From IMG/VR virus record IMGVR_UViG_3300028840_005911, positions 64,001-128,000 of that record: a stretch of 64,000 nucleotides of DNA. One strand, 5' to 3'. This stretch comes from a virus. Shown piece by piece: positions 15,937 through 45,549 of this stretch. The position numbers and the translations under genes are program-made. Numbering within the stretch: the stretch's first letter is position 1; every line of letters begins with the position of its first letter. The notes below the pieces were generated by a model that ran no database searches, was not told the origin of the DNA, and saw only the letters and a program-made list of their open reading frames with translations.

Positions 15937-16782
15937 ATGGAAATGGCAGAACAAGCTCGGAGGGTAATTTCATGTGACGAGGGGGACCTCGAGTCAGTTG
16001 CAGAAGAGCTGGGTATCGATTTCGAGGTGGCCCAAAACACCAGAGAGTACTGGCGTGCGCGAATGGAGGGACGCTGTGTACTGTGTGGGACGGTATCCAA
16101 GACGGAGATGTGCAAGAAGTGTGCGCCAGATGGGGTAGAGCCCCTCGCAGAGTTCCCTGACATCCTCAAGGACATGAACGGGAACAGGACACTGATCTCC
16201 AAGACGTGCTCGGGGTGCAAGAAGACCAGGAATCTACGTGTGCGGTACGTCCTGGACATGCACGAAAAGTACGGATCCAAGTTCTTCAGGAACCCGAAGT
16301 GGCTATGCAAGGAGTGCTTCAGGAAGAAAGCGAAGGAACGGAACCTCAACCTCAAACACCAACCTTTCAAGTGTCTCGAAGGCAAAATAGCCGCGAAAAT
16401 GGAAAAAATCGAGGGCAATACTGGTATAAGAAAAGTGGAAGGAAAGTGCACCCTTAACACCCCCTCTGAGGAGGGGAAGGAGGAAGTCATGGCAGCAACC
16501 GCAACGAAAGCAAGTCCAGTGTCAGAACACTTCGAGGCCGCCCTCGAGAACCTCAAGTCGGACAACGACGAGGTCCGCAAGATGGCACGCGCCGAGTGCC
16601 GTCAGAGCCTGAACTACGTCGAGCAGGGCATGTCCCTGGCTCCGCGCCTCTGCCACAAGGCCGAGTTCAGCACCCCCATCGTGTCCGACATCATCTCGGT
16701 CGGCAAGCCCCTCGCCTACGCCGGCGGCATCTACGCGGGTGTCAAGGGCATCATGACCGTCGTCGAGTGGCTCCGCGCCTGA
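15937..16782 (+). CDS. Zn-finger protein in frame with a nested downstream gene
   Basis: Three CxxC pairs; no stop before internal promoter, SD and ATG at 16489. Confidence 0.55.
   Translation: MEMAEQARRVISCDEGDLESVAEELGIDFEVAQNTREYWRARMEGRCVLCGTVSKTEMCKKCAPDGVEPLAEFPDILKDMNGNRTLISKTCSGCKKTRNLRVRYVLDMHEKYGSKFFRNPKWLCKECFRKKAKERNLNLKHQPFKCLEGKIAAKMEKIEGNTGIRKVEGKCTLNTPSEEGKEEVMAATATKASPVSEHFEAALENLKSDNDEVRKMARAECRQSLNYVEQGMSLAPRLCHKAEFSTPIVSDIISVGKPLAYAGGIYAGVKGIMTVVEWLRA
16489..16782 (+). CDS. small, probably highly expressed hypothetical protein (nested start)
   Basis: Promoter motif at 16404-16430, SD GAAGGAGG, strongly C/G-ending codons, terminator 16820-16848. Confidence 0.6.
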   Translation: MAATATKASPVSEHFEAALENLKSDNDEVRKMARAECRQSLNYVEQGMSLAPRLCHKAEFSTPIVSDIISVGKPLAYAGGIYAGVKGIMTVVEWLRA

Positions 16783-16851
16783 CCCCCTCCTTCCCGGACA
16801 TCTCCGGAAAATCCCACTAAAGAGAGCCCACCAGCTCTCTTTTTAGCCTTC

Positions 16852-16879
16852 GAAAATACGAGCACCTTTCTGGTATAAG
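16852..16879 (+). promoter_or_regulatory. phage promoter motif
   Basis: GAAAAT-N16-TATAAG. Confidence 0.7.
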
Positions 16880-16974
16880 AACTATGGAGAGGTGACTTTC
16901 TCCTATGGGTGGGCGAGGAGCGGATCCACAACGGACCGCTCCTTTGCCTTACTATTCATCTTCCGGAGGGTACT

Positions 16975-17469
16975 ATGCGAGAATCTTGGGACCGATACTT
17001 CATGAACATCGCCGAGCTCGTATCTACGAGGGCGACCTGCGTGCGCAGGAAGGTCGGCGCGGTCATCGTAAGGGACAAGAACATTTTGGCGACAGGGTAT
17101 AATGGAGCTCCTCGAAGAGTGGAACACTGCACAGACGAGACCTGTCTTAGGCAGAAGCTCAACATCCCATCCGGTGAGAGGCATGAGATTTGCCGGGCCG
17201 TCCATGCCGAACAGAATGCCATCATCCAGGCCGCCCGCCATGGTGTAGCAGTCAATGGCGCGTCTTTGTACATCACAGTCTTCCCGTGCTCCATTTGCGC
17301 AAAGATGATCATCAACTCTGGGATCTCGAAGATCTACTTCGAAGGCGACTATGGAGATGCCAGGTCTACGAGCCAATCGTACGAATATCTCTGGCAGTAC
17401 AGCTCTTGTGAGCTTTACCGGGTTAAAGAGGACGGTACTACCGTACTGACGTTCCCGAAACCCAAGTAA
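16975..17469 (+). CDS. dCMP deaminase (ComEB-like)
   Basis: [52 protein letters not shown]. Confidence 0.93.
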
Positions 17470-17495
17470 AATCCGGCGTGGTCTTCCGATATAAG
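17467..17495 (+). promoter_or_regulatory. phage promoter motif
   Basis: TAAAAT-N17-TATAAG. Confidence 0.75.
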
Positions 17496-17574
17496 AACTA
17501 TGAACAGAAGGGCAGTGCAGCAAAACCGGGAAGGTAGGGCGCTGCAAAAGGTTACGCACCCAAAGGAGGATCAA

Positions 17575-18393
17575 ATGAAAGACTTCAGAGTGAAGGTGAG
17601 AGCCTACAATAATAGGTTGCTCGAGAGGCGGGAAAAGTTAGGACTATCTCAAAAGGCCTTGGCAGCGCAGGCTGGGATACCTGCCGGAGAGTACAACAAG
17701 TACGAGAATATGCGGAAGACGGCGTGGAACCCAAAAAAGAATAACTGGAGGCCGGATGCGGTTAAACTGGCTGCATTCCATGATGTATCCGAGTTCGATC
17801 TATTTCCCGAATCTCTCAAGATGATCGAAGCGCGTCCTGTGGAGATGGAGGTAGATGCCTGCGAGGTAGAGGCCTTGATGGGAGCCTCCATACCAACCCC
17901 ACATAAAGCTCTCGAATCTTCCGACCTGAACACAAAGGTCAGAGAAGTCATCTCTACACTCACCCCAAGAGAAGAAAAGGTAATCAGGGCACATTTCGGG
18001 ATAGGAGAGGATGAGCGGACATTTGAGGAGATCGGTGAAGAATTCGGTGTTGGCAGAAACAGAATACGTCAGATAGAGTGCAAAGCCCTTCGTAAACTAC
18101 GTCACCCACACCGGGCTAAACGTCTGATAGATTACTGTGAAGAAGGACCAGCGCCAAAGCCCAAAGAACCAAAACCTAGACCTCCTACTCCAAAAGAGCT
18201 GGCTCTAGAAAAGTTTCACGCATACGGACACAAAGAACGTAGTATGGGGTGGGCCTATCACTTCCGCTTCAGAAACTTCTATTTTCTGAAGTGCCGAACG
18301 TGCGGACGCAGGGCTTATGCAAAACGGAGAAATGGAAGGATGATGATCTTTGGGGAAGCCCTCAACGTCAAATGTGGTAAGTACCTTCCGTAA
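17575..18393 (+). CDS. XRE-HTH plus sigma70 region-4 HTH protein
   Basis: RREKLGLSQKALAAQAGI (XRE); LTPREEKVIRAHFGIG..RTFEEIGEEFGVGRNRIRQIECKALRKLRHP (sigma r4). Confidence 0.82.
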   Translation: MKDFRVKVRAYNNRLLERREKLGLSQKALAAQAGIPAGEYNKYENMRKTAWNPKKNNWRPDAVKLAAFHDVSEFDLFPESLKMIEARPVEMEVDACEVEALMGASIPTPHKALESSDLNTKVREVISTLTPREEKVIRAHFGIGEDERTFEEIGEEFGVGRNRIRQIECKALRKLRHPHRAKRLIDYCEEGPAPKPKEPKPRPPTPKELALEKFHAYGHKERSMGWAYHFRFRNFYFLKCRTCGRRAYAKRRNGRMMIFGEALNVKCGKYLP

Positions 18394-18395
18394 TC

Positions 18396-18490
18396 GGTGG
18401 ATAGCTTGAGAGTTTGTTGGTGGGTCGATTGGACTAGCGAACGGTTAGATGCTGGTTCGCTGGGAAGAGAGCCTTGTGCTCTCTTTTACC
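18396..18490 (+). ncRNA. (GNNN)n array A plus terminator hairpin
   Basis: G at 8/8 positions 18396-18424, then 11/13 at 18419-18467 after a 1-nt phase slip; hairpin GAAGAGAGC/GCTCTCTT. Confidence 0.65.
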
Positions 18491-18766
18491 TCAGAGCTGC
18501 GCCTTGAGGGTCGGTGAGGGCCGGAAGCCGACGGTCTTGGAGGCCTTGACCTTGATGATCTCGCCGGTCTGCGGATTGCGGCCCTTGCGGGCCTTGCGCT
18601 TGCGCAGATTGAAGACACCGAAGCCGGCGTAGCTGAAGCGGCCTTCCTTCTTCACCGTCTTGGTGATGGTGCTGAAGACGCTGTCCACGATATCGGTCGC
18701 GGCCTTGGTCGTCATCTCGTACCCCGCCGTCTTCTTGATCTGCTCGATGAATTCCTTCTTGGTCAT
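18491..18766 (-). CDS. hup: HU family DNA-binding protein
   Basis: MTKKEFIEQI..., GFGVFNLRKRKARKGRNPQTGEIIKVKASKTVGFRPS. Confidence 0.95.
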   Translation of the reverse strand: MTKKEFIEQIKKTAGYEMTTKAATDIVDSVFSTITKTVKKEGRFSYAGFGVFNLRKRKARKGRNPQTGEIIKVKASKTVGFRPSPTLKAQL

Positions 18767-18942
18767 GTCTGAACTCCTACAAAAGGGTTAAAGAAAACAC
18801 AGGCAGAATAAGCATAGTAGAGACAATAGTCAACAACTTTCGCCAAAATACGGCCATTATTGGAAATTCTGGGTGACAGTTTCGGTACAAGAATACTGAG
18901 GAGGAAATCCGCATTTTAACCAGCCGGGACTGGGAGAAAACC

Positions 18943-19326
18943 ATGAAGAAAGGAGTAGTCAAGATCGTAGAGGCTAAGGAGAAGTTTCCTGGAAAGGTTC
19001 CCGCAGTCGTGTACGCCGCACTGCTGGAACACAAAACAATGGCGGAGAATTTTGACTGGGCCGCTTGGCTCTACAATCCTATTCTTGGCTCGAGGTTCTT
19101 GCTGGACTCTGACGTAAACCGGCAGAACATCCTAAGAAGAACTGAGTACAACCCGTCATTCCACAAGTGGGGATATGTAGACGGGTCATGCGTCATAGTA
19201 CTAGGCGACTCAGAAGACTACGTTCTCACGACACTCGATTCTCTGCTTCCGCATGTAACGGTGCAAACACTGGACATCTGCGAGGAGAGGATGCTCATGA
19301 AACATCTGATGCGGCCGGGAGGCTAG
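18943..19326 (+). CDS. hypothetical phage protein
   Basis: Promoter variant GAAATT-N17-TACAAG at 18863-18891; terminator 19329-19358. Confidence 0.65.
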   Translation: MKKGVVKIVEAKEKFPGKVPAVVYAALLEHKTMAENFDWAAWLYNPILGSRFLLDSDVNRQNILRRTEYNPSFHKWGYVDGSCVIVLGDSEDYVLTTLDSLLPHVTVQTLDICEERMLMKHLMRPGG

Positions 19327-19360
19327 GAATAAAGGAGGCTCCGGCCTCCTTTATTACCTG

Positions 19361-19388
19361 TAAAATACTGGACTTTCTCAGGTATAAG
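19361..19388 (+). promoter_or_regulatory. phage promoter motif for RAMP-like gene
   Basis: TAAAAT-N16-TATAAG followed by SD AAGGAGGAGG. Confidence 0.78.
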
Positions 19389-19435
19389 AAAAATGTGAAG
19401 AGATCATCTTAACCACCACAAGGAGGAGGAATCAC

Positions 19436-20692
19436 ATGAACATCGATCTCAACATGTTCGAGAAGGACGAGAAGACGGGACTCTACATCATCGAGGACCA
19501 GGTAGTCCTCGGTATCATCCTGGTCTACGTCATCCAGAAGCTCGGACAGTGCAACGACAACCTGCTGCGGGATACCCTCCGTGACAAACTGGGCATCTAC
19601 GTACGCAAGTGGAAGACCGTCTTCCGCAACGCCCTCAACGCTCTCAAGAAGCTGGACCTCATCGCCATCAACCAGCTCCCCGGAGAGGGGGACGTACAGG
19701 AAGAGCACTACTCCCTGAAGAACGTGGAGTTCGCCTCCCCGCCGCATCTGGCCCACTTCAAGGACGTTCTTCCCAAACTGCTTGCAGACGGGACGTCCGC
19801 AGCTATCAAGGTGGCTTTCGACTCCGGGGAAGAAGCGGAGCCAGGGGAGACCACCAAGCCCAAGAGGGGAGCAAACATCAAAGAGAGCCACGTCTACTCA
19901 GTCCGGTTCGAGAGTGAGGAGAAGTTCCTTGCTGGTAGGTCAATCTGTCCGACCATGAGGGACGGCCTGGAGAAATCTCCGTACCAACCGAACATCGATG
20001 GCTATATCAAGCAGGAAGAAGAAGAGCCCAGGAAGACCAAGAAAAAGAAGGCGGCCGATAGGGCAGACGCTAAGATCGACCGCTTCTTCGAGCGAGCCAC
20101 TGACGGCGGGATCCTGATCCACGGTGGTATCACCAAGGGCATGTTCTGCTCTGCCATACCGCGCTTGTACGGCCTCGCCCCGGCAACCGCGAGGGACAAC
20201 GGCGGGTACCCGTCGATCATCGTCTACCCGAACAATCACGGTATCCAACTGACCACACTTCCGGTCCAGGCCTCCAACGGCAAGTCAGCCGCACCGCAAA
20301 CCTACGAGACAATCATGCCTGGAGAGGAGATCCTGCTCAGGTTCTGGGCCCCGACCAAAGGGTTCCTGGACGCGGACATCATCGTTGAGTATCTCGAGTT
20401 CATCGGCCTCTTCCCAAAACGCACCCTTTCGCCCGGTCGTGGCACCGAGACTGGGAAGATGAGGATGACTCACTTCGTTGACCATGGCCTTGTTCCGGAG
20501 ATATTCGAGAAGCGCAAGAAGAACAGGAAGAAGCTTCCCATAGATGCATACCTCGACTGGGAGTTCGAAAAGGAGACCGGGGTAACGCTCCAAAAAGTCG
20601 GCGGTGCCCCGAAGACTAAGAAGGCCCGCATGCGGGTCGACGGCAACAAGATGCTCCTCTTCAAGACGAAGGGAGACCAGGCTCAGGCGTAG
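19436..20692 (+). CDS. stand-alone Cas7/RAMP-superfamily protein with N-terminal winged-helix domain
   Basis: RAMP-order motifs: VYSVRFESEEKFLAG; FFERATDGGILIHGGITKGMFCSA; TLPVQASNGKSAAPQTYETIMPGEEILLRF; Gly loop LSPGRGTETGKMRM; residues about 20-95 wHTH-like. Confidence 0.72.
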   Translation: MNIDLNMFEKDEKTGLYIIEDQVVLGIILVYVIQKLGQCNDNLLRDTLRDKLGIYVRKWKTVFRNALNALKKLDLIAINQLPGEGDVQEEHYSLKNVEFASPPHLAHFKDVLPKLLADGTSAAIKVAFDSGEEAEPGETTKPKRGANIKESHVYSVRFESEEKFLAGRSICPTMRDGLEKSPYQPNIDGYIKQEEEEPRKTKKKKAADRADAKIDRFFERATDGGILIHGGITKGMFCSAIPRLYGLAPATARDNGGYPSIIVYPNNHGIQLTTLPVQASNGKSAAPQTYETIMPGEEILLRFWAPTKGFLDADIIVEYLEFIGLFPKRTLSPGRGTETGKMRMTHFVDHGLVPEIFEKRKKNRKKLPIDAYLDWEFEKETGVTLQKVGGAPKTKKARMRVDGNKMLLFKTKGDQAQA

Positions 20693-20757
20693 TTCCTCCC
20701 CCTGGGTGCGCCTGGAGAGAGGGTGGGTCGCGCATCACCCCACCCTCTCTTTAGCCG

Positions 20758-20786
20758 TAAATTTGACGACCCCTTTTGGGTATAAG
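20758..20786 (+). promoter_or_regulatory. phage promoter motif, preceded by terminator 20715-20753
   Basis: TAAATT-N17-TATAAG. Confidence 0.75.
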
Positions 20787-20830
20787 AATACTGGAGAAGG
20801 ACAACCTTATATCCATAGGAGGGGAAAGCC

Positions 20831-21193
20831 ATGGATCACGTCAGCAAGCACACCAAAGGAGTCATGAACTCAATCGCCAGGTTCGCTCTCAAGCACCAGG
20901 AGAGAAACGGAATCGAAACGAAGTGGGTCTCCAAGAGCAGGATCCACGTCGTGTTCGGGAAGGAGTTCGGGGTCGACCTGAACACCATCAACTGGACCGG
21001 TGAGATCTATAAGCTCAAGCGCCGCTACGGAAAGTCAATTCGAGAACGTCTCGAGTACATTGTCCCCGGGGCCGATCTCAAGTACGACTTCTACTACCAG
21101 CTGGCAAAGATGATCTGGAGAGATCGCTACAAGAGGAAATTGACGAAGACACCAGGGTCCTGTATCATCGACGATACGTCACACACTTCTTGA
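20831..21193 (+). CDS. hypothetical basic protein
   Basis: GGAGGGG SD. Confidence 0.7.
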   Translation: MDHVSKHTKGVMNSIARFALKHQERNGIETKWVSKSRIHVVFGKEFGVDLNTINWTGEIYKLKRRYGKSIRERLEYIVPGADLKYDFYYQLAKMIWRDRYKRKLTKTPGSCIIDDTSHTS

Positions 21194-21318
21194 CCGGTTT
21201 ACAGCATCCCTGTACCGGTCTACCAAAAATGACAGGTTCCTCCCGAGGGCTTCGCTGGGAGGGTCATTGAACGTGGTGAATGGGGGTCGCCCTCGCCCCC
21301 TAGTAACCGGAGGTCCTC

Positions 21319-21570
21319 ATGTACCAGCTGAAGAAGCACGTGAACCAGACCGTCCGCAAATTTCTTATATCCAAAGGGGCCTATATGCACCCGGAGGCGA
21401 TAAAGAAGCTGAAGAAGTTATCTGCAGACAGGCCGTACAACTACATCTACCAGATCAAGAGAAGATACCGGAAGATAGTGAGGAAGGCTCGCAAGAAATA
21501 CCCGAACATCGTCCACGACTGGATGGCAATCTATTACGCCTACAGGCTAGGGAGAGGAAGATGGACATAG
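21319..21570 (+). CDS. hypothetical basic protein
   Basis: GGAGG SD. Confidence 0.6.
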   Translation: MYQLKKHVNQTVRKFLISKGAYMHPEAIKKLKKLSADRPYNYIYQIKRRYRKIVRKARKKYPNIVHDWMAIYYAYRLGRGRWT

Positions 21571-22076
21571 AGAAGAAATTCTATCTGACACAGAGGATAG
21601 AGAAGCAGTGGAATGCTCCTCGGGACGATAAGGAAGGCGTCGACGCTTATTTCGCCTTCGACTACATGGGATCTTCAGAGTTCGAGTGGGGAGCGCTCCC
21701 TAAGGCTCTGCGAGACATGCGCAAGGGCTGGAAGGAAGAAGAGCCAGTCATTGTGAGGATCAACGCATACATCCCCCTGGATGATATTGAAGAAAAAGAT
21801 AATGGGGTCACCTGTCATGTCTGGTTTGTAGGCAATAGAGAAGACCTCGAGGACGCTACTGATTTCTTCAACGACCAACTCACTGATAGGAAGATCCGAA
21901 TCCATGAGAGGACCTGCATGTCACAGGCCTACGGTATCCCTGAGGGGCCATATGACAAGGCATCAAGCTTCTACGACAGGCTGATAGGGTGGTGGGCTCT
22001 GAATGGTCTGATATGTCTCTTCCGGGACGAGGAGGACGCAAAAATCTGGAAAAGGGAGGTTCTCAATGGACAATAA
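21561..22076 (+). CDS. hypothetical phage protein
   Basis: FDYMGSSEFEWGALPKAL motif; ATG at 21561. Confidence 0.65.
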   Translation: MDIEKKFYLTQRIEKQWNAPRDDKEGVDAYFAFDYMGSSEFEWGALPKALRDMRKGWKEEEPVIVRINAYIPLDDIEEKDNGVTCHVWFVGNREDLEDATDFFNDQLTDRKIRIHERTCMSQAYGIPEGPYDKASSFYDRLIGWWALNGLICLFRDEEDAKIWKREVLNGQ

Positions 22077-22105
22077 GAAACGTACTGCAAGAGCTGGAGC
22101 TTGCA

Positions 22106-22133
22106 TAAAATCTAGCTGTGAATACGGTATAAG
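22106..22133 (+). promoter_or_regulatory. phage promoter motif
   Basis: TAAAAT-N16-TATAAG. Confidence 0.75.
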
Positions 22134-22196
22134 GATACTGTAGGAGATCGTTAGGTCTCCATGTTACAATCTCAGCTTCACAAGGAGGGAAATCCC

Positions 22197-22952
22197 ATGG
22201 GTAAGATGCACGAACTGCTGGCAGTCGAGTCAGACCGCGAGGCGGTCTTCAAGAAGGTCGTCACCGAGGCCGGCGATACGTTCCGTAAACGCTCCGACCA
22301 CTTCCTCGGGCACCACAAGACGCTCGAGATGAAGGAAGAGGGCAAGGAGATGGCAGAGGCCGCTGCCGAAGACCACAAGGCCATGGTCACGACTGTCGGC
22401 AAGAAGCTCGACTACGTCTCCAACCCGGTCGTCACATACCTGGACGCGGTCCTGCAGAAGGAATGCACCAACCAGGTGGCGAAAGCCGATCTCGTTCTTC
22501 CGGACGGCACCGTGCTCGGCAAAGACCTGCCGGCCACCTTCTTGCTAGGGCTCGAGTCCAAGCTCAAGTTCCTCCGTCAGATGTACGAGAACATCCCGAC
22601 CTTGTCCCCTGGGACAGAGTGGGTCGCAGATGATCAGATGGGCGAAGGGGTCTACAAGTCCAAGCATCTCGAGACCAAGGCCAAGACGGAGACGACTGTC
22701 GAACACAAGGTCATCGTCGAAGCCACCGAGCACCACCCGGCCCAGATCGGCGAGGCATCCATCACCGAGGTCGTCGGTGTCTTCAAGACCAAGCACTGGA
22801 GCGGGATGATCTCTCCTGCCCGGAAGTCGGAGCTCCTGGGACGGTTGGACGTACTCATGCAGGCCGCCAAGCAAGCAAGGATGAGGGCCAACTCAGCGGA
22901 CACCATCGACAGGAAGATCGGCAAGGAGCTGGTGGACTACATCAACGCATAG
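22197..22952 (+). CDS. uncharacterised helical/coiled-coil protein (LLAVE...PATFLLGLE...EATEHHPAQ...WSGMIS family)
   Basis: AAGGAGG SD, strong codon bias; lies directly upstream of the tRNA-like RNA. Confidence 0.75.
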   Translation: MGKMHELLAVESDREAVFKKVVTEAGDTFRKRSDHFLGHHKTLEMKEEGKEMAEAAAEDHKAMVTTVGKKLDYVSNPVVTYLDAVLQKECTNQVAKADLVLPDGTVLGKDLPATFLLGLESKLKFLRQMYENIPTLSPGTEWVADDQMGEGVYKSKHLETKAKTETTVEHKVIVEATEHHPAQIGEASITEVVGVFKTKHWSGMISPARKSELLGRLDVLMQAAKQARMRANSADTIDRKIGKELVDYINA

Positions 22953-23125
22953 GAGAACAGAGGTTTGACAAGTGGGTCAGCATTGGTGTTCCTGAAGCGG
23001 AGTCCCGGTTTGACACCCGGAACAAGGCCCGCAGACAGGGGTACTGAGCTTCAGAGTGAGCGTCAGCTTATCGAACCCACAGCGTCAATAGCCGTAATAC
23101 AACCCTGATGAGGATCTTCTGGCAT

Positions 23126-23228
23126 GAACCACAATCACCGTGGTCGCAGGTTCAAGTCCTGCCATCCCCTCCAACCTATGGGGATGTAGCTCAGTGGTAA
23201 GAGCGACGGGTCGTTGTTGTAACGGTTC
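23126..23228 (+). ncRNA. circularly permuted tRNA-like RNA (YrlA/Y-RNA-like tRNA mimic)
   Basis: T arm GCAGG-TTCAAGT-CCTGC (23146-62), then CATCCCC-TCCA, a loop, GGGGATG (23180-86), then D arm GCTC-AGTGGTAA-GAGC; ACGG pairs with upstream CCGT; no anticodon loop. Confidence 0.78.
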
Positions 23229-23329
23229 TTGGGTAGATGATTCCAAGGGTGGCGGCGCTGGGTGACTGGGAGACGATGTGTATCTATGGAGATTTGGCAC
23301 GTCAATGTCTTCCAGTCACTCCATCATTA

Positions 23330-23373
23330 GGGCCGGGAGGCCGCAAATAGCCGGCCTCCCGGCCCTCTCTTTT
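23330..23373 (+). terminator. intrinsic terminator
   Basis: AGGGCCGGGAGGCCG/CCGGCCTCCCGGCCCT stem followed by CTCTTTT. Confidence 0.75.
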
Positions 23374-23482
23374 GAGGAGATTTAATGGGCGATCCAATGT
23401 TCGGGTACATGGTAGGCTCACTGATCGTTATCGTGCTCGTGGTTGTGATCTTCTCCTGTACTCCAGATAGGAGGAGGAAACG

Positions 23483-23776
23483 ATGAGAGAACCAATAGAC
23501 TACGACGGATACATGTGGGATCGAGACCCAGAGGCCGTAGAGGAACACAAAGAGCTCGAGCCCGCACTGGAGGTACTCGACGCCTTCATCTCGGACTGGG
23601 TCGAGCCGTGCTACAATTTCCTGGACTTCCAACGAGAGGCTCTGGTAACAATCGAAGCCTACATCAAATTCCTCGAGGGCCCAAACATGGCAGAAGGCGA
23701 TCTGAAGGCACTCAGGGAGAGGTTCCGAAATGAGCGAGAAAGAAGCCAAGAAGAGAGAGCTCCTGAACAGGGCTGA
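23483..23776 (+). CDS. hypothetical phage protein
   Basis: GGAGGAGG SD. Confidence 0.6.
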   Translation: MREPIDYDGYMWDRDPEAVEEHKELEPALEVLDAFISDWVEPCYNFLDFQREALVTIEAYIKFLEGPNMAEGDLKALRERFRNERERSQEERAPEQG

Positions 23777-23930
23777 GAATACCCTAACGGAGCTCATGGA
23801 TGTTGTCGAGAAGGACAGCAAGAAGATCCTCACGATGGATACCATCAACGGGGTCCGCAAGCTCCGGACATATCTCGTCGGCGGACATTACACGCCGTTT
23901 CTTGGCATAAAAGATCGAACAGGCCAGTAG
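23730..23930 (+). CDS. hypothetical phage protein
   Basis: ORF track. Confidence 0.55.
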   Translation: MSEKEAKKRELLNRAENTLTELMDVVEKDSKKILTMDTINGVRKLRTYLVGGHYTPFLGIKDRTGQ

Positions 23931-24001
23931 CTCAATTGGTAGAGCACCCGCAATCTGAAACATGCGGGAGGTTTGGGGTTCAAGTCCTTGCTGGCCTACC
24001 A
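23921..24001 (+). tRNA. atypical tRNA-Phe(GAA)-like gene with extended anticodon arm
   Basis: AGGCCAG/CTGGCCT-A-CCA acceptor, canonical D arm, CCCGCAAT-CTGAAAC-ATGCGGG anticodon arm (22 nt instead of 17), G-U-rich T stem with TTCAAGT. Confidence 0.68.
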
Positions 24002-24133
24002 GTTCCGGGCCATAGTGGTCCGGTGAAGCTTCTAGGATGGCCCCTGGAGCTTCAAGGCCCTGGGCGCGGGGAAGGAAAAGGATTCCTCCTTTTGGGTGCT
24101 CCCCGCGCCCGGGCAATCTCTCAAGGAGCGCCG

Positions 24134-24394
24134 ATGCACAAATTTAAGTGTCCCCACTGTGGAGACGATTCCTATATCTGCCGCAACGAGACGGTGTACC
24201 TACAGACGCCGGTGAAACCAACAGACACCTCATGGACATACGACGAGGACAGGATGGCATTTGACGGGGCGATCCTGTGGGATACCTGCGGACGGTACGA
24301 TCTCGATGACCAGGAATTCAAGTGTGTGAACTGCCTGACCGACTTCGACTGGTCCATCATCGACGGGCCAACGAACGTCGTTCTACCTGACTAG
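24134..24394 (+). CDS. small Zn-ribbon protein
   Basis: FKCPHCG...FKCVNC; AAGGAG SD. Confidence 0.6.
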   Translation: MHKFKCPHCGDDSYICRNETVYLQTPVKPTDTSWTYDEDRMAFDGAILWDTCGRYDLDDQEFKCVNCLTDFDWSIIDGPTNVVLPD

Positions 24395-24402
24395 GAACAA
24401 CA

Positions 24403-24642
24403 ATGAAATGCCAAAGATGTGAAAGCGAGAGGATCCTGAAATTCTCCGGGAAGACCTCTGACCTCTTTTCCTGCTACTACATGGGCAAAGAGCACCAAGG
24501 GTATGTGCCGAAAGGCATCGGTATCAACGATAAGTACAGGGACTATCTACAAGGACGTCTGTGCATGGAGTGCGGACAAGTCCAAGGAGAATTCCCCGTA
24601 CCCGGGCCAGACATCGAAGACGATGAAGAAGAGGAGTTGTAA
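24403..24642 (+). CDS. small Zn-finger protein
   Basis: MKCQRCES...LCMECGQVQG. Confidence 0.65.
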   Translation: MKCQRCESERILKFSGKTSDLFSCYYMGKEHQGYVPKGIGINDKYRDYLQGRLCMECGQVQGEFPVPGPDIEDDEEEEL

Positions 24643-24643
24643 C

Positions 24644-25027
24644 ATGTTCGAAGAGCTGACCTTCAAGAAAGAGGAAGTCCTCAATAGGCTGAAGATCAAT
24701 CGCGAGGAGCATCTGAAGATCGTACGCGAAGCCCAGGAGGGTTACCGGGAGCAGTACGAGAAGCTCCTGGTCAAGACCCTCGATGATCTCCGGTCCGGGA
24801 AAGAGGTTCCTAACCACGTAGGTCTGACAGTCCCGTCGAACCACGTGGATGATTATGACCGTGCTATCGAGATGCTCGAGATGTGCACCGAGAAAGAGAT
24901 CATCCTCGACGAGAACCAGTTCCAGGAGCTCATGCGTAACAAGTGGAACTGGATGAGCGGGTTCCTGGTCAGCAACGCTGGTTACAGCGCCACTGCCCAC
25001 AACATCACCACGACAGCCGACGTGTAA
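24644..25027 (+). CDS. hypothetical helical phage protein
   Basis: GAGGAG SD; HVDDYDRAIEMLEM motif. Confidence 0.7.
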   Translation: MFEELTFKKEEVLNRLKINREEHLKIVREAQEGYREQYEKLLVKTLDDLRSGKEVPNHVGLTVPSNHVDDYDRAIEMLEMCTEKEIILDENQFQELMRNKWNWMSGFLVSNAGYSATAHNITTTADV

Positions 25028-25052
25028 AATACTGAAATCATTCGGTTATAAG
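25025..25052 (+). promoter_or_regulatory. phage promoter motif driving an ncRNA
   Basis: TAAAAT-N16-TATAAG with no ORF before the next terminator. Confidence 0.75.
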
Positions 25053-25059
25053 AACTTCG

Positions 25060-25268
25060 AGGAGAAGTTTACACACCTGGTCCCCTCACTCCCCTCCGAG
25101 GGGACCAAACTCCTACACCTTGGGCCTGCCGGCAGGTATCCCTCCCCCTCCTGCCGGCAGGCCCCTTCAAAAACTGGATGTTAGGTGGAACTGCCGTGCG
25201 CATGTCCGGGAGTCCGTAGGAATGGGTAGGTGAGGTAAGAAGGGGAGCCCTGTTCCTCTTCTTTTAGC
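25060..25268 (+). ncRNA. ncRNA: two hairpins with C-rich loops, (GNNN)n array I, terminator
   Basis: TGGTCCCCTC/GAGGGGACCA and GGGCCTGCCGGCAG/CTGCCGGCAGGCCC stems; G at 13/15 in-phase positions 25176-25232. Confidence 0.72.
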
Positions 25269-25338
25269 CCATGAATTCTAAGGTCTTCTTGCGGTATAAG
25301 GATACTGAGGAAGAACCTTAGCACCACAGGAGGAAGCC

Positions 25339-25683
25339 ATGAAATATCTTGAGAGAGCGGCGATAAGCCTGCAATCTGTTCTACACAAAGGGAGCACCGA
25401 TCTCGAGAAGATCGGCATCTTGCTGGCCAACATCCATACCATCATCGATCTGTGGATCCCCATCGGCCGGGCTGTTCAGATCATGGGTCGGGAGCGTTCG
25501 GCCCCGGTTCTGCGCTCGAGGGCCGAGAAGCTCATCAGGGATATCCGTAGAGAGGACGAGGATGCCGTCAGAGAGGATATCTCGGTCATAGAGGACATAG
25601 TATACCAGTACACCGGAAAACGTCCCGTAGGGGGCAAGGAGTACGCTAGCAGGGAGACTATCCAGTTTGTCGACGCCCCCTGA
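25339..25683 (+). CDS. hypothetical phage protein
   Basis: Promoter TGAATT-N17-TATAAG at 25272-25300; GGAGG SD. Confidence 0.65.
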   Translation: MKYLERAAISLQSVLHKGSTDLEKIGILLANIHTIIDLWIPIGRAVQIMGRERSAPVLRSRAEKLIRDIRREDEDAVREDISVIEDIVYQYTGKRPVGGKEYASRETIQFVDAP

Positions 25684-25813
25684 GTCTGATACACTGGCCT
25701 CGGCCCTGCCGGATAGTTCATCCATGTGAGCTCCTACCAAGTCCAGCAGGGTCATTTATTTTGGAGAAGGAAATGGACAGACCAACATACAGGAGCAGAA
25801 GAAGAGTGGACTG

Positions 25814-26032
25814 GTGGCTATCACCACCGGTCTGTTCATCGACAGGGCATCTTCACGAAAACAGATAGAGGAGGCATGGCCCAGCCTCTGCAAGGATCTC
25901 GGGCTGGTTGATGACAAAACCGGGACGAACACGTACACCATTCAGGGGTTCGATCTCTACAAGTGGGTTGAGGAGAAGCACCAAGAGAAGTTCAACTCTG
26001 AGCCGGACCCTGTACCAAAACCCCATTCTTGA
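25814..26032 (+). CDS. hypothetical phage protein
   Basis: ORF track. Confidence 0.5.
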   Translation: MAITTGLFIDRASSRKQIEEAWPSLCKDLGLVDDKTGTNTYTIQGFDLYKWVEEKHQEKFNSEPDPVPKPHS

Positions 26033-26160
26033 CATGCGCGATCACCTCTTTGCAGTGATCACAGACAATGCACACATATCCGTCAATGACCTGAACGGAG
26101 AGGATATGGAACATGTGTTTCTCGAGATCCATTTCTAGATTGTAGCACAGGAGCAAAGTT

Positions 26161-26409
26161 ATGGGAGATTTGTCAGACGACCTCCGCGAGATGGGTATAG
26201 CCGAGGAAGGTATACCCCAGACGGAGATGATCTGTGAAATATTCGCACCGGTGATTGACGAGCTCATCGAACATCGCCTCGACGCGGCTACTACTGAAAA
26301 AGAGAAGAGGAATGCTCCCTACGATGTGAGGGACTACCTGTTCCGTCTGATAACCGCGATAGCCACTCAGAAAAAATACATCAGGAGGGCAAACGAATGG
26401 AAAGAGTAA
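26161..26409 (+). CDS. hypothetical phage protein
   Basis: AGGAG SD. Confidence 0.6.
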   Translation: MGDLSDDLREMGIAEEGIPQTEMICEIFAPVIDELIEHRLDAATTEKEKRNAPYDVRDYLFRLITAIATQKKYIRRANEWKE

Positions 26410-26639
26410 GCGCGTGGGTCATCGTCTGCGGGACTGGCGCCTTATACCCTATAGGGTCAGGTGGAGGGAAGGCCGCCTACATCCACAAAGAGGTCGCCGA
26501 GGATGTAATGATGGCCATCGCTGATCACGATAAGGCCTACGTCAAAGGTCGCGGAGGTCTTCACCTCGAAGAAATAACTGCAGAGGCCGGCCTGTTCAAG
26601 CAGCTAGGCCTCAATCTTGTCACGCAGGAGAAAGAGTAA
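26397..26639 (+). CDS. hypothetical phage protein
   Basis: GGAGGG SD. Confidence 0.55.
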   Translation: MERVSAWVIVCGTGALYPIGSGGGKAAYIHKEVAEDVMMAIADHDKAYVKGRGGLHLEEITAEAGLFKQLGLNLVTQEKE

Positions 26640-26881
26640 TGGCCTACGTAGTCGGACTTCTCACAGATGAGGAGATGGAGATTCTCGAAGAGCGCGGATG
26701 GGATTTCGAGGAACCTCCCGCAGAGCTCAAGCTGGGGAGGTGTCCCCCGGGAAAGGTCCAGAAGATGGTCTGGGTCGACAGTGATATGTTCGAGATCATC
26801 GGCCCCTGGGAAGACAGGTCGTTCAGTGACGGTCCTCCCTACGATGCCGCAACTGCTACGGGGATGTACGACCGGTACTAA
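26639..26881 (+). CDS. hypothetical acidic phage protein
   Basis: TAATG overlap. Confidence 0.6.
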   Translation: MAYVVGLLTDEEMEILEERGWDFEEPPAELKLGRCPPGKVQKMVWVDSDMFEIIGPWEDRSFSDGPPYDAATATGMYDRY

Positions 26882-26900
26882 ACACGGCCGGTTGAATGGC

Positions 26901-27068
26901 GATAGATTGAATGAGTTACTGATAGTTTGCGAGGGAGTTGGGAAGGACGGAGTCTGGAAAGCAGTGAGGAAAGGGCGGAAGGTTGTTCGATCTCACGAGG
27001 GATAGGCAGCCAGTGGGCCTGTGGGGAGGAGCGAACGGAAAAGAGACTGATCTGGTCTCTTTTCTTAC
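26901..27068 (+). ncRNA. (GNNN)n array B plus terminator hairpin
   Basis: G at 31/35 in-phase positions 26901-27037; off-phase G 28/105; hairpin GAAAAGAGAC/GTCTCTTTTC-TTAC. Confidence 0.8.
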
Positions 27069-40765: not shown

Positions 40766-40841
40766 GGATCGGTAGTTCAGCTGGTAGAACGCTGGTCTGT
40801 TAAACCAGAAGTCCGAGGTTCAAGTCCTCGCCGATCCGCCA
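40766..40841 (+). tRNA. trnN: tRNA-Asn(GTT)
   Basis: 76-nt cloverleaf: GGATCGG/CCGATCC-G-CCA, CTGGT-CTGTTAA-ACCAG, CGAGG-TTCAAGT-CCTCG. Confidence 0.95.
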
Positions 40842-45522: not shown

Positions 45523-45549
45523 CTTATACCAGAAGATGAGAGGATTCTT
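45523..45549 (-). promoter_or_regulatory. phage promoter motif
   Basis: Minus strand AAGAAT-N15-TATAAGAA. Confidence 0.6.

Follow-up and report, generated by a model that had tools for sequence, protein, structure and literature searches.

A tract of 35 four-base units in a phage genome (array B, positions 26901-27040, + strand), which carries G at the first base of nearly every unit, is probably an untranslated and unstructured RNA lattice serving as an RNA track for a protein that combines a winged helix with a Cas7-like (RAMP) domain. The analysed stretch of DNA, termed here the window, comprises 64,000 nucleotides (positions 64,001 to 128,000 of IMG/VR record IMGVR_UViG_3300028840_005911) of a genome that is 192,446 bp long, complete, and bounded by direct terminal repeats. 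Seven period-4 tracts, array B included, were found on the + strand within 7 kb of this 192-kb phage, and similar tracts accompany the genes of homologous proteins in other phages.

The recount of array B gave G as the first base in 31 of the 35 units and T in the remaining four, at 26917, 26953, 26965 and 26993, which is identical with the original count. Off-phase G amounts to 28 of 105 bases (0.267) and equals the average of the whole window (0.268); consequently the periodic G alone accounts for the G excess of array B, as had been proposed from the sequence. The binomial probability of at least 31 in-phase G in 35 units is 2.5e-14. A comparison with shuffled controls had also been proposed, and a period-4 G excess of such size was absent from them: when the intergenic stretch 26882-27146 was shuffled 300 times with its dinucleotides preserved, the best in-phase G count had a mean of 17.0 and a maximum of 23 out of 35. 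When the whole 192,446-bp genome was scanned, all 140-nt windows with at least 22 in-phase G fell at window positions 26861-32107, and no 140-nt window anywhere in the genome reached 26 for in-phase C, the equivalent on the opposite strand. A maximal-segment scan of the window revealed five tracts with scores of 17-36, whereas 50 block shuffles gave at most 11.

Over all 212 units of the arrays the in-phase exceptions comprise about 15 T, 7 A, and 2 C, and the first position is occupied by G, T, A, and C at frequencies of 0.89, 0.07, 0.03, and 0.01, respectively. Among the substitutes for in-phase G in this genome T is mildly favoured and C is avoided (chi-square about 8.9, 2 degrees of freedom), and base composition is nearly even at unit positions 2-4, except for some shortage of C at the second and third (0.15). 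The suggestion that the T exceptions of array B could be processing or segment boundaries is not borne out, as they occupy units 5, 14, 17, and 24 with irregular spacing, the exceptions of the sister arrays are T, A, or C, and in related phages A is the usual alternative to in-phase G.

The 140-nt body of array B folds no better than its shuffles (z -0.16), and it leads into a hairpin (27037-27065, + strand) which had been noticed before and is real: a 12-bp stem, in which 27037-27048 pairs with 27054-27065, and a 5-nt loop, followed by UAC at 27066-27068. The array had originally been drawn to 27068; the hairpin and the UAC do end there, but the lattice proper stops at 27040 and overlaps the stem by a single unit. 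With a folding energy of -15.2 kcal/mol (z -2.7), a 5' arm made of purines only and a 3' arm made of pyrimidines only, which is U/C-rich together with the bases that follow it (UCUCUUUUCUUAC), this 3' cap is terminator-like and probably also terminates transcription; a generic terminator scan called the sister hairpin at 29707-29735 and did not call the hairpin of array B. The 5' leader CGGCCGGTT is common to arrays B and E only and is not a general feature.

Array B follows the stop codon of a small ORF (26639-26881) and precedes the gene at 27147-27854. The promoter-like motif GGTATAAG, which looks like the phage group's own promoter -10 element, occurs in 16 copies in the window versus 0.76 expected, and its + strand copies stand just after the hairpin of each array and just before each gene block. 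The distance to the gene block is nearly always 30-60 nt; the + strand copies span window positions 16423-31219, and further copies were observed at 45523, 50719, 50748, and 58102. The copy at 25293-25300, the putative start of the array B transcript, and the copy at 27095-27102, which would start the following unit with ORF 27147-27854, bracket array B, and no other + strand copy lies between the two; hence array B most likely forms the 3' end of an early transcript of about 1.8 kb, as judged from these motifs only. Five or six small ORFs without known family would be carried by this transcript (25339-26881, + strand, including 25339-25683, 26161-26409, 26397-26639, and 26639-26881), with array B as their 3' untranslated tail. 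In a related contig (L014) the same motif is found 3' of the lattice as well as at its usual place upstream of gene blocks.

The other tracts show the same organization on the + strand. Array A (25176-25227; 13 units) is weak, arrays C (29610-29701) and D (30563-30678) contain 23 and 29 units, respectively, array E (30909-31160; 63 units) stands alone as an RNA gene and is preceded by a promoter-like motif of its own at 30782, and array G (31997-32190) is built from 10 and 39 units with a phase slip of 2 nt between them; each of them has a tail hairpin. The seven arrays all run in the direction of the genes beside them, each lies between GGTATAAG motifs, and each is closed by a purine/pyrimidine hairpin whose sequence is different every time (seven tails folded, z from -2.1 to -6.9), which indicates that the design is conserved and not the letters. 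The co-orientation with genes, the hairpin design, the bracketing by GGTATAAG, and the unstructured body together argue that the arrays are read as RNA rather than as DNA.

Several other elements were observed in the same region. The palindrome CAACAGNNCTGTTG has six copies versus 0.09 expected, all around arrays D, E, and G (30135-30148, 30543-30556, 30747-30760, 31198-31211, 32238-32251, and 32323-32336), and the copies at 30135 and 31198 abut GGTATAAG in an operator-like manner. Two ORFs flanking the array region (17500-18393 and 31264-31773) contain a sigma-70 region 4 domain, one of them also HTH_3, pointing to a transcription programme of the phage's own in this early block. A weak tract of about 20 units (18396-18474) with a short AGAGAG/CTCTCT hairpin follows directly on the sigma-like ORF, 1 kb before the RAMP gene; its score of 8 is borderline relative to the shuffle maximum of 11.

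Searches for known relatives of array B gave no match. At the gathering threshold Rfam returned tRNAs only, among them a second tRNA at 23921-23998 (50.8 bits) which was not called by ARAGORN, the only tRNA found by the latter being tRNA-Asn at 40766-40841. Neither the array B region nor the RAMP protein had a match in INPHARED by megablast and tblastn, the same was true of array B itself in a blastn search of INPHARED, and an IMG/VR search by means of the neighbouring ORF 27147-27854 found no syntenic relatives. The perfect pattern (GNNN)x19 in IMG/VR yielded only tandem repeats among the matches listed. Such false positives of the (GNNN)n pattern include the 12-nt unit GGTGGGAAGAAY, which forms long arrays in many unrelated viral contigs (among the matches listed, L025, L027, L031, L036, L037, L043, L051, L072, L074, L078, and others).

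The candidate partner of the arrays is the 418-aa product of ORF 19436-20692 (+ strand; own GGTATAAG at 19381), the only gene of its kind in the genome, which has no Pfam or PHROG match. An exhaustive search yielded 88 representative homologues, and nearly all full-length ones are 340-440 aa long and consist of the same two parts. The AF2 model built with 65 homologues reached a pLDDT of 84.5, compared with 40 for the single-sequence fold, and in this model the C-terminal domain has the RAMP fold: the top Foldseek matches in the PDB are Csm3, Cas7-11, Cmr4, and type VII Cas7 (probability 1.0, E about 2e-6, TM to target 0.55-0.61), and a near-invariant SPxRG...G loop (SPxRGxxxG) is situated where RAMPs carry their glycine-rich loop. 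Among viral structures (BFVD library) the top matches are winged-helix proteins of PadR type and solitary viral RAMPs some 200 aa long, the Atlas structure entries returned for the protein include PF03787 RAMPs, and the sequence profile has weak matches to PadR regulators and Csm5. For the N-terminal domain the match is to a PadR-type winged helix and is weak. The genome contains no reverse transcriptase, and no CRISPR-like direct repeats were seen around the RAMP gene. The arrays do not adjoin the RAMP gene in this genome, being 4.5-11.5 kb away from it; at the 3' end of the gene there is a purine/pyrimidine hairpin of the array-type design (about 20716-20752) with no lattice in front. In most relatives a lattice sits exactly before the gene-end hairpin, at the position that is lattice-free here.

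The DNA around homologues from independent samples was scanned for periods 4, 5, and 6, and lattices were found in 8 of 11 independent phage contexts carrying the protein family. With one fixed set of criteria, 18 non-repetitive period-4 lattices with G or purine in phase were called on the strand of the gene and none on the other (nine loci, 92.7 kb), versus 0.35 expected (Poisson P 5e-25); the expectation comes from 8 calls in 2.1 Mb strand-bases of a control set that is biased towards G-period-4 repeats, and the estimate is therefore conservative. In all relatives the lattices repeat every 4 nt with an in-phase G or purine, and a terminator hairpin closes most of them; the family lattices together comprise more than 1,100 units, and period 5 gave no signal either in the seven arrays described here or in the lattice-bearing contexts.

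Homologues with lattices are only 24-41% identical and originate from different samples. Two long examples lie close to the stop codon of the RAMP gene: 64 units with 60 in-phase purines, from 80 nt past the stop codon and followed by a purine/pyrimidine hairpin and then GGTATAAG, for P0003 (39% identity, L014), and 72 units with 67 G, from 5 nt past the stop codon, for P0030 (L147), which has an additional 20-unit tract upstream. One lattice begins at the gene end in P0004 (L016), five occupy successive intergenic gaps in P0007 (L139), two share a 1.5-kb gene-free gap in P0008 (L141), five accompany P0012 (L142), and in the case of P0062 (24% identity, L148) lattices are present on both sides of the gene. 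In total 6 of the 18 lattices start at most 80 nt from the stop codon. The flanking genes differ among the homologue contexts, which ties the lattice to the RAMP gene and not to one phage lineage; in the strain comparison contig pairs with the same homologue were at least 99.9% identical. Two IMG/VR phages with a homologue (G001 and G002) have no convincing lattice in 172 kb, the P0006 contigs (L017-L020) show weak tracts only, and L146 is too short to be judged. In G002 (IMG/VR 3300005614_001084) three weak period-4 purine tracts were noticed at about 70.5-71.9 kb on both strands, with the RAMP homologue 36 kb off; this cluster may be due to chance in a genome of 63% GC. According to these data the reading implied at the outset, a non-coding, punctuated, and possibly guide-like RNA, gains in weight, since such tracts accompany a Cas7-like protein in many phages, as do the guide RNAs of VIPR, the phage system based on the lone RAMP Vipr.

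The proposed mechanism is as follows. Array B would provide in-phase G (U being tolerated) with three free bases between, at the hairpin-capped 3' end of an early transcript; the RAMP protein would bind this lattice with one protomer per four nucleotides, the in-phase G setting the register as GGY does for Vipr. The resulting filament, which we consider probable with somewhat more assurance than the complete picture, would display NNN triplets together with a row of winged-helix DNA-binding domains. As its function we prefer that the NNN triplets would recognise foreign DNA in a gapped manner, as in VIPR. In the most far-reaching form of this reading, array B would belong to an undescribed four-base-register sister of VIPR, in which a fused protein reads one G or purine per protomer and presents three-base words, and long tracts in the 3' ends of mRNAs use a new gapped code to address DNA of foreign origin or of the host; the guide function is our tentative first choice, held at somewhat below even chance, with a pure scaffold not far behind. 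The lattices of 35-88 units, being far longer than known guides, speak against such guide function.

The gapped target search that had been recommended for array B was performed and found no target. In the own genome, with skips of 0-3 and windows of 8, 12, and 16 units, the best match was 31/48 versus a null maximum of 30, and none stood above the shuffled controls; 14 lattices compared with the RAMP-bearing phage DNA retrieved for this analysis remained within the null; and nine exact seeds (units 6-12, 15-21, and 25-31/32; skip 0 and skip 1) had 0 matches in IMG/VR, JGI metagenomes, and GTDB genomes, which for these large collections is a weak negative since the search covered exact seeds only.

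The strongest rival explanation, less probable than the guide reading, is that the lattice is a scaffold and not a guide: the RAMP would polymerise on lattices whose NNN triplets carry no address. Such a scaffold might shield or label early mRNAs at their 3' ends, titrate the protein, or tether transcripts to DNA via the winged helix, for example as a timing or local-concentration device in the control of early genes. This would agree with the fact that five of the seven arrays, including B, are 3' tails of coding transcripts and not separate RNA genes, that lattice lengths are highly variable (13-88 units) and far above addressing needs, that phase slips are tolerated and the NNN composition is near uniform, and that the searches returned no target. 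In many relatives, moreover, the lattice is the 3' UTR of the RAMP mRNA, which suits autoregulation. However, the only characterised relatives by fold and logic, namely, VIPR and class 1 CRISPR, pair through free bases, the target searches covered exact seeds and small local sets, which makes their silence weak evidence, and none of the lattices is a simple repeat, although a scaffold could do without diverse sequence.

It is improbable that the lattice is independent of the RAMP, either as a 3' UTR element for another factor of host or phage with a four-base register or as a tail rich in G and poor in C that shields early transcripts from Rho or RNases. Such independence could be read from the distance between the arrays and the RAMP gene in this genome, from the depletion of C at unit positions 2 and 3, as expected for a Rho-resistant or unstructured tail, and from the two homologue-bearing phages without clear lattices. 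Against it, composition alone needs no strict phase, and the strand-specific co-occurrence across eight contexts would have to be a coincidence or the result of whole phages sharing an ancestor, although their flanking genes vary from one context to the next.

It is very improbable that array B is due to chance, to a cryptic tandem repeat, to a signal at the DNA level, or to an unusual mode of coding such as a mirrored ORF or quadruplet decoding: the binomial and shuffle values given above disagree with chance, 27 of the 35 NNN triplets of array B are distinct and exclude a tandem repeat, the four-base period fits neither triplet coding nor the DNA helical repeat, the arrays follow the direction of transcription, and the genome has no reverse transcriptase. 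In favour of coding, none of the 35 NNN words of array B is a stop triplet, whichever orientation is read; but this is expected by chance in about 8-20% of cases, and the sister arrays and relatives do contain stops. Candidate readings as a mirrored ORF or quadruplet coding were rejected on the stops present in most lattices (32 seen versus 45 expected), and a reverse-transcriptase template on the lack of the enzyme.

If the reading of array B as a guide of a four-base-register sister of VIPR is true, a third register of 4 nt would be placed beside those of CRISPR (6 nt) and VIPR (5 nt). A second protein family with a different RNA register would mean that the register of RAMP filaments is evolvable, with one fixed and three free bases per four, that RNA tracks may be parts of ordinary mRNAs, and that RNA-templated RAMP filaments of phages are wider than the published seven types. 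Should the triplets address DNA, a new programmable code with three contiguous paired bases per unit would be obtained; should they not, this would be the first Cas7-like protein acting as a sequence-independent RNA coat.

Among known systems, the TRAP-binding sites of Bacillus trp leaders consist of 9-11 (G/U)AG triplets separated by spacers of 2-3 nt. The likeness lies in an oligomer that reads a periodic word beginning with G or U on unstructured RNA, the in-phase bases of array B being only G and U; but TRAP sites have a period of 5-6 nt, a three-base word, and about 11 repeats, in contrast to the period of 4 in array B, and TRAP is a ring of unrelated fold acting in a leader, whereas a filament on a 3' tail is proposed here.

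[quoted passage not shown] Their register of 6 nt is set by a repeat-derived handle, unlike the in-phase base of every unit here, and they need Cas5, Cas6, and Cas10 or Cas11 together with CRISPR arrays, none of which is present; the phage has a single RAMP gene, no repeat-spacer array, and a period of 4 and not 6, so that it does not belong to class 1 CRISPR.

The closest system is VIPR, which has been described in preprints of 2026 only. In the accounts given by two preprints Vipr is a lone phage RAMP that places one protomer on each 5-nt unit of its vrRNAs, which consist of 9-16 YNNGG units with GGY held by Vipr and NN shown for gapped pairing with dsDNA (bioRxiv 10.64898/2026.04.26.720920, 10.64898/2026.04.26.720927), the structural one of them being a further description of the GGY/NN units (bioRxiv 10.64898/2026.04.26.720927). 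The alternative units described are NNNGG, YNNNG, and NNNNG, all pentamers, with no 4-nt unit among those given in bioRxiv 10.64898/2026.04.26.720920 and 10.64898/2026.10.15.759431. Escherichia phage SUSP1 represents VIPR type II, and six other types are described. As a positive control, the scan applied to this genome recovered the four period-5 vrRNAs around the 195-aa Vipr gene of SUSP1 (KT454805). No similarity was detected between SUSP1 Vipr and the family of ORF 19436-20692 by BLASTP or profile-sequence comparison, or between Vap1 of SUSP1 and the N-terminal domain, and hhalign of the family profile with a 27-member Vipr profile gave a probability of 0.5%. RAMPs are known to diverge so far that sequence no longer reveals their kinship.

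Both systems have a phage-encoded lone Cas7-like RAMP, here a stand-alone gene without other cas genes or a CRISPR array, and a non-coding RNA of short head-to-tail units with a fixed G position (G in 89% of the units of this genome), the other bases being hypervariable in VIPR and near uniform in composition here, which ends in a structured 3' cap. Both also include a winged-helix DNA-binding function, encoded by a separate vap gene in VIPR types II, VI, and VII but fused to the RAMP here, in a protein of 340-440 aa. The differences are the VIPR unit of 5 nt with up to three fixed bases versus a lattice unit of 4 nt (G/R + NNN) with one, 9-16 units per vrRNA versus 13-88 per lattice, a conserved pseudoknot tail versus a plain hairpin cap, and the position of many lattices in mRNA 3' UTRs. 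Pentanucleotide units were not seen: each of the seven arrays and each of the eight contexts with lattices has a period of 4. As it departs from VIPR in unit length and tract length and its protein shows no sequence similarity to Vipr, the array B system is not filed as a member of VIPR and is set beside it.
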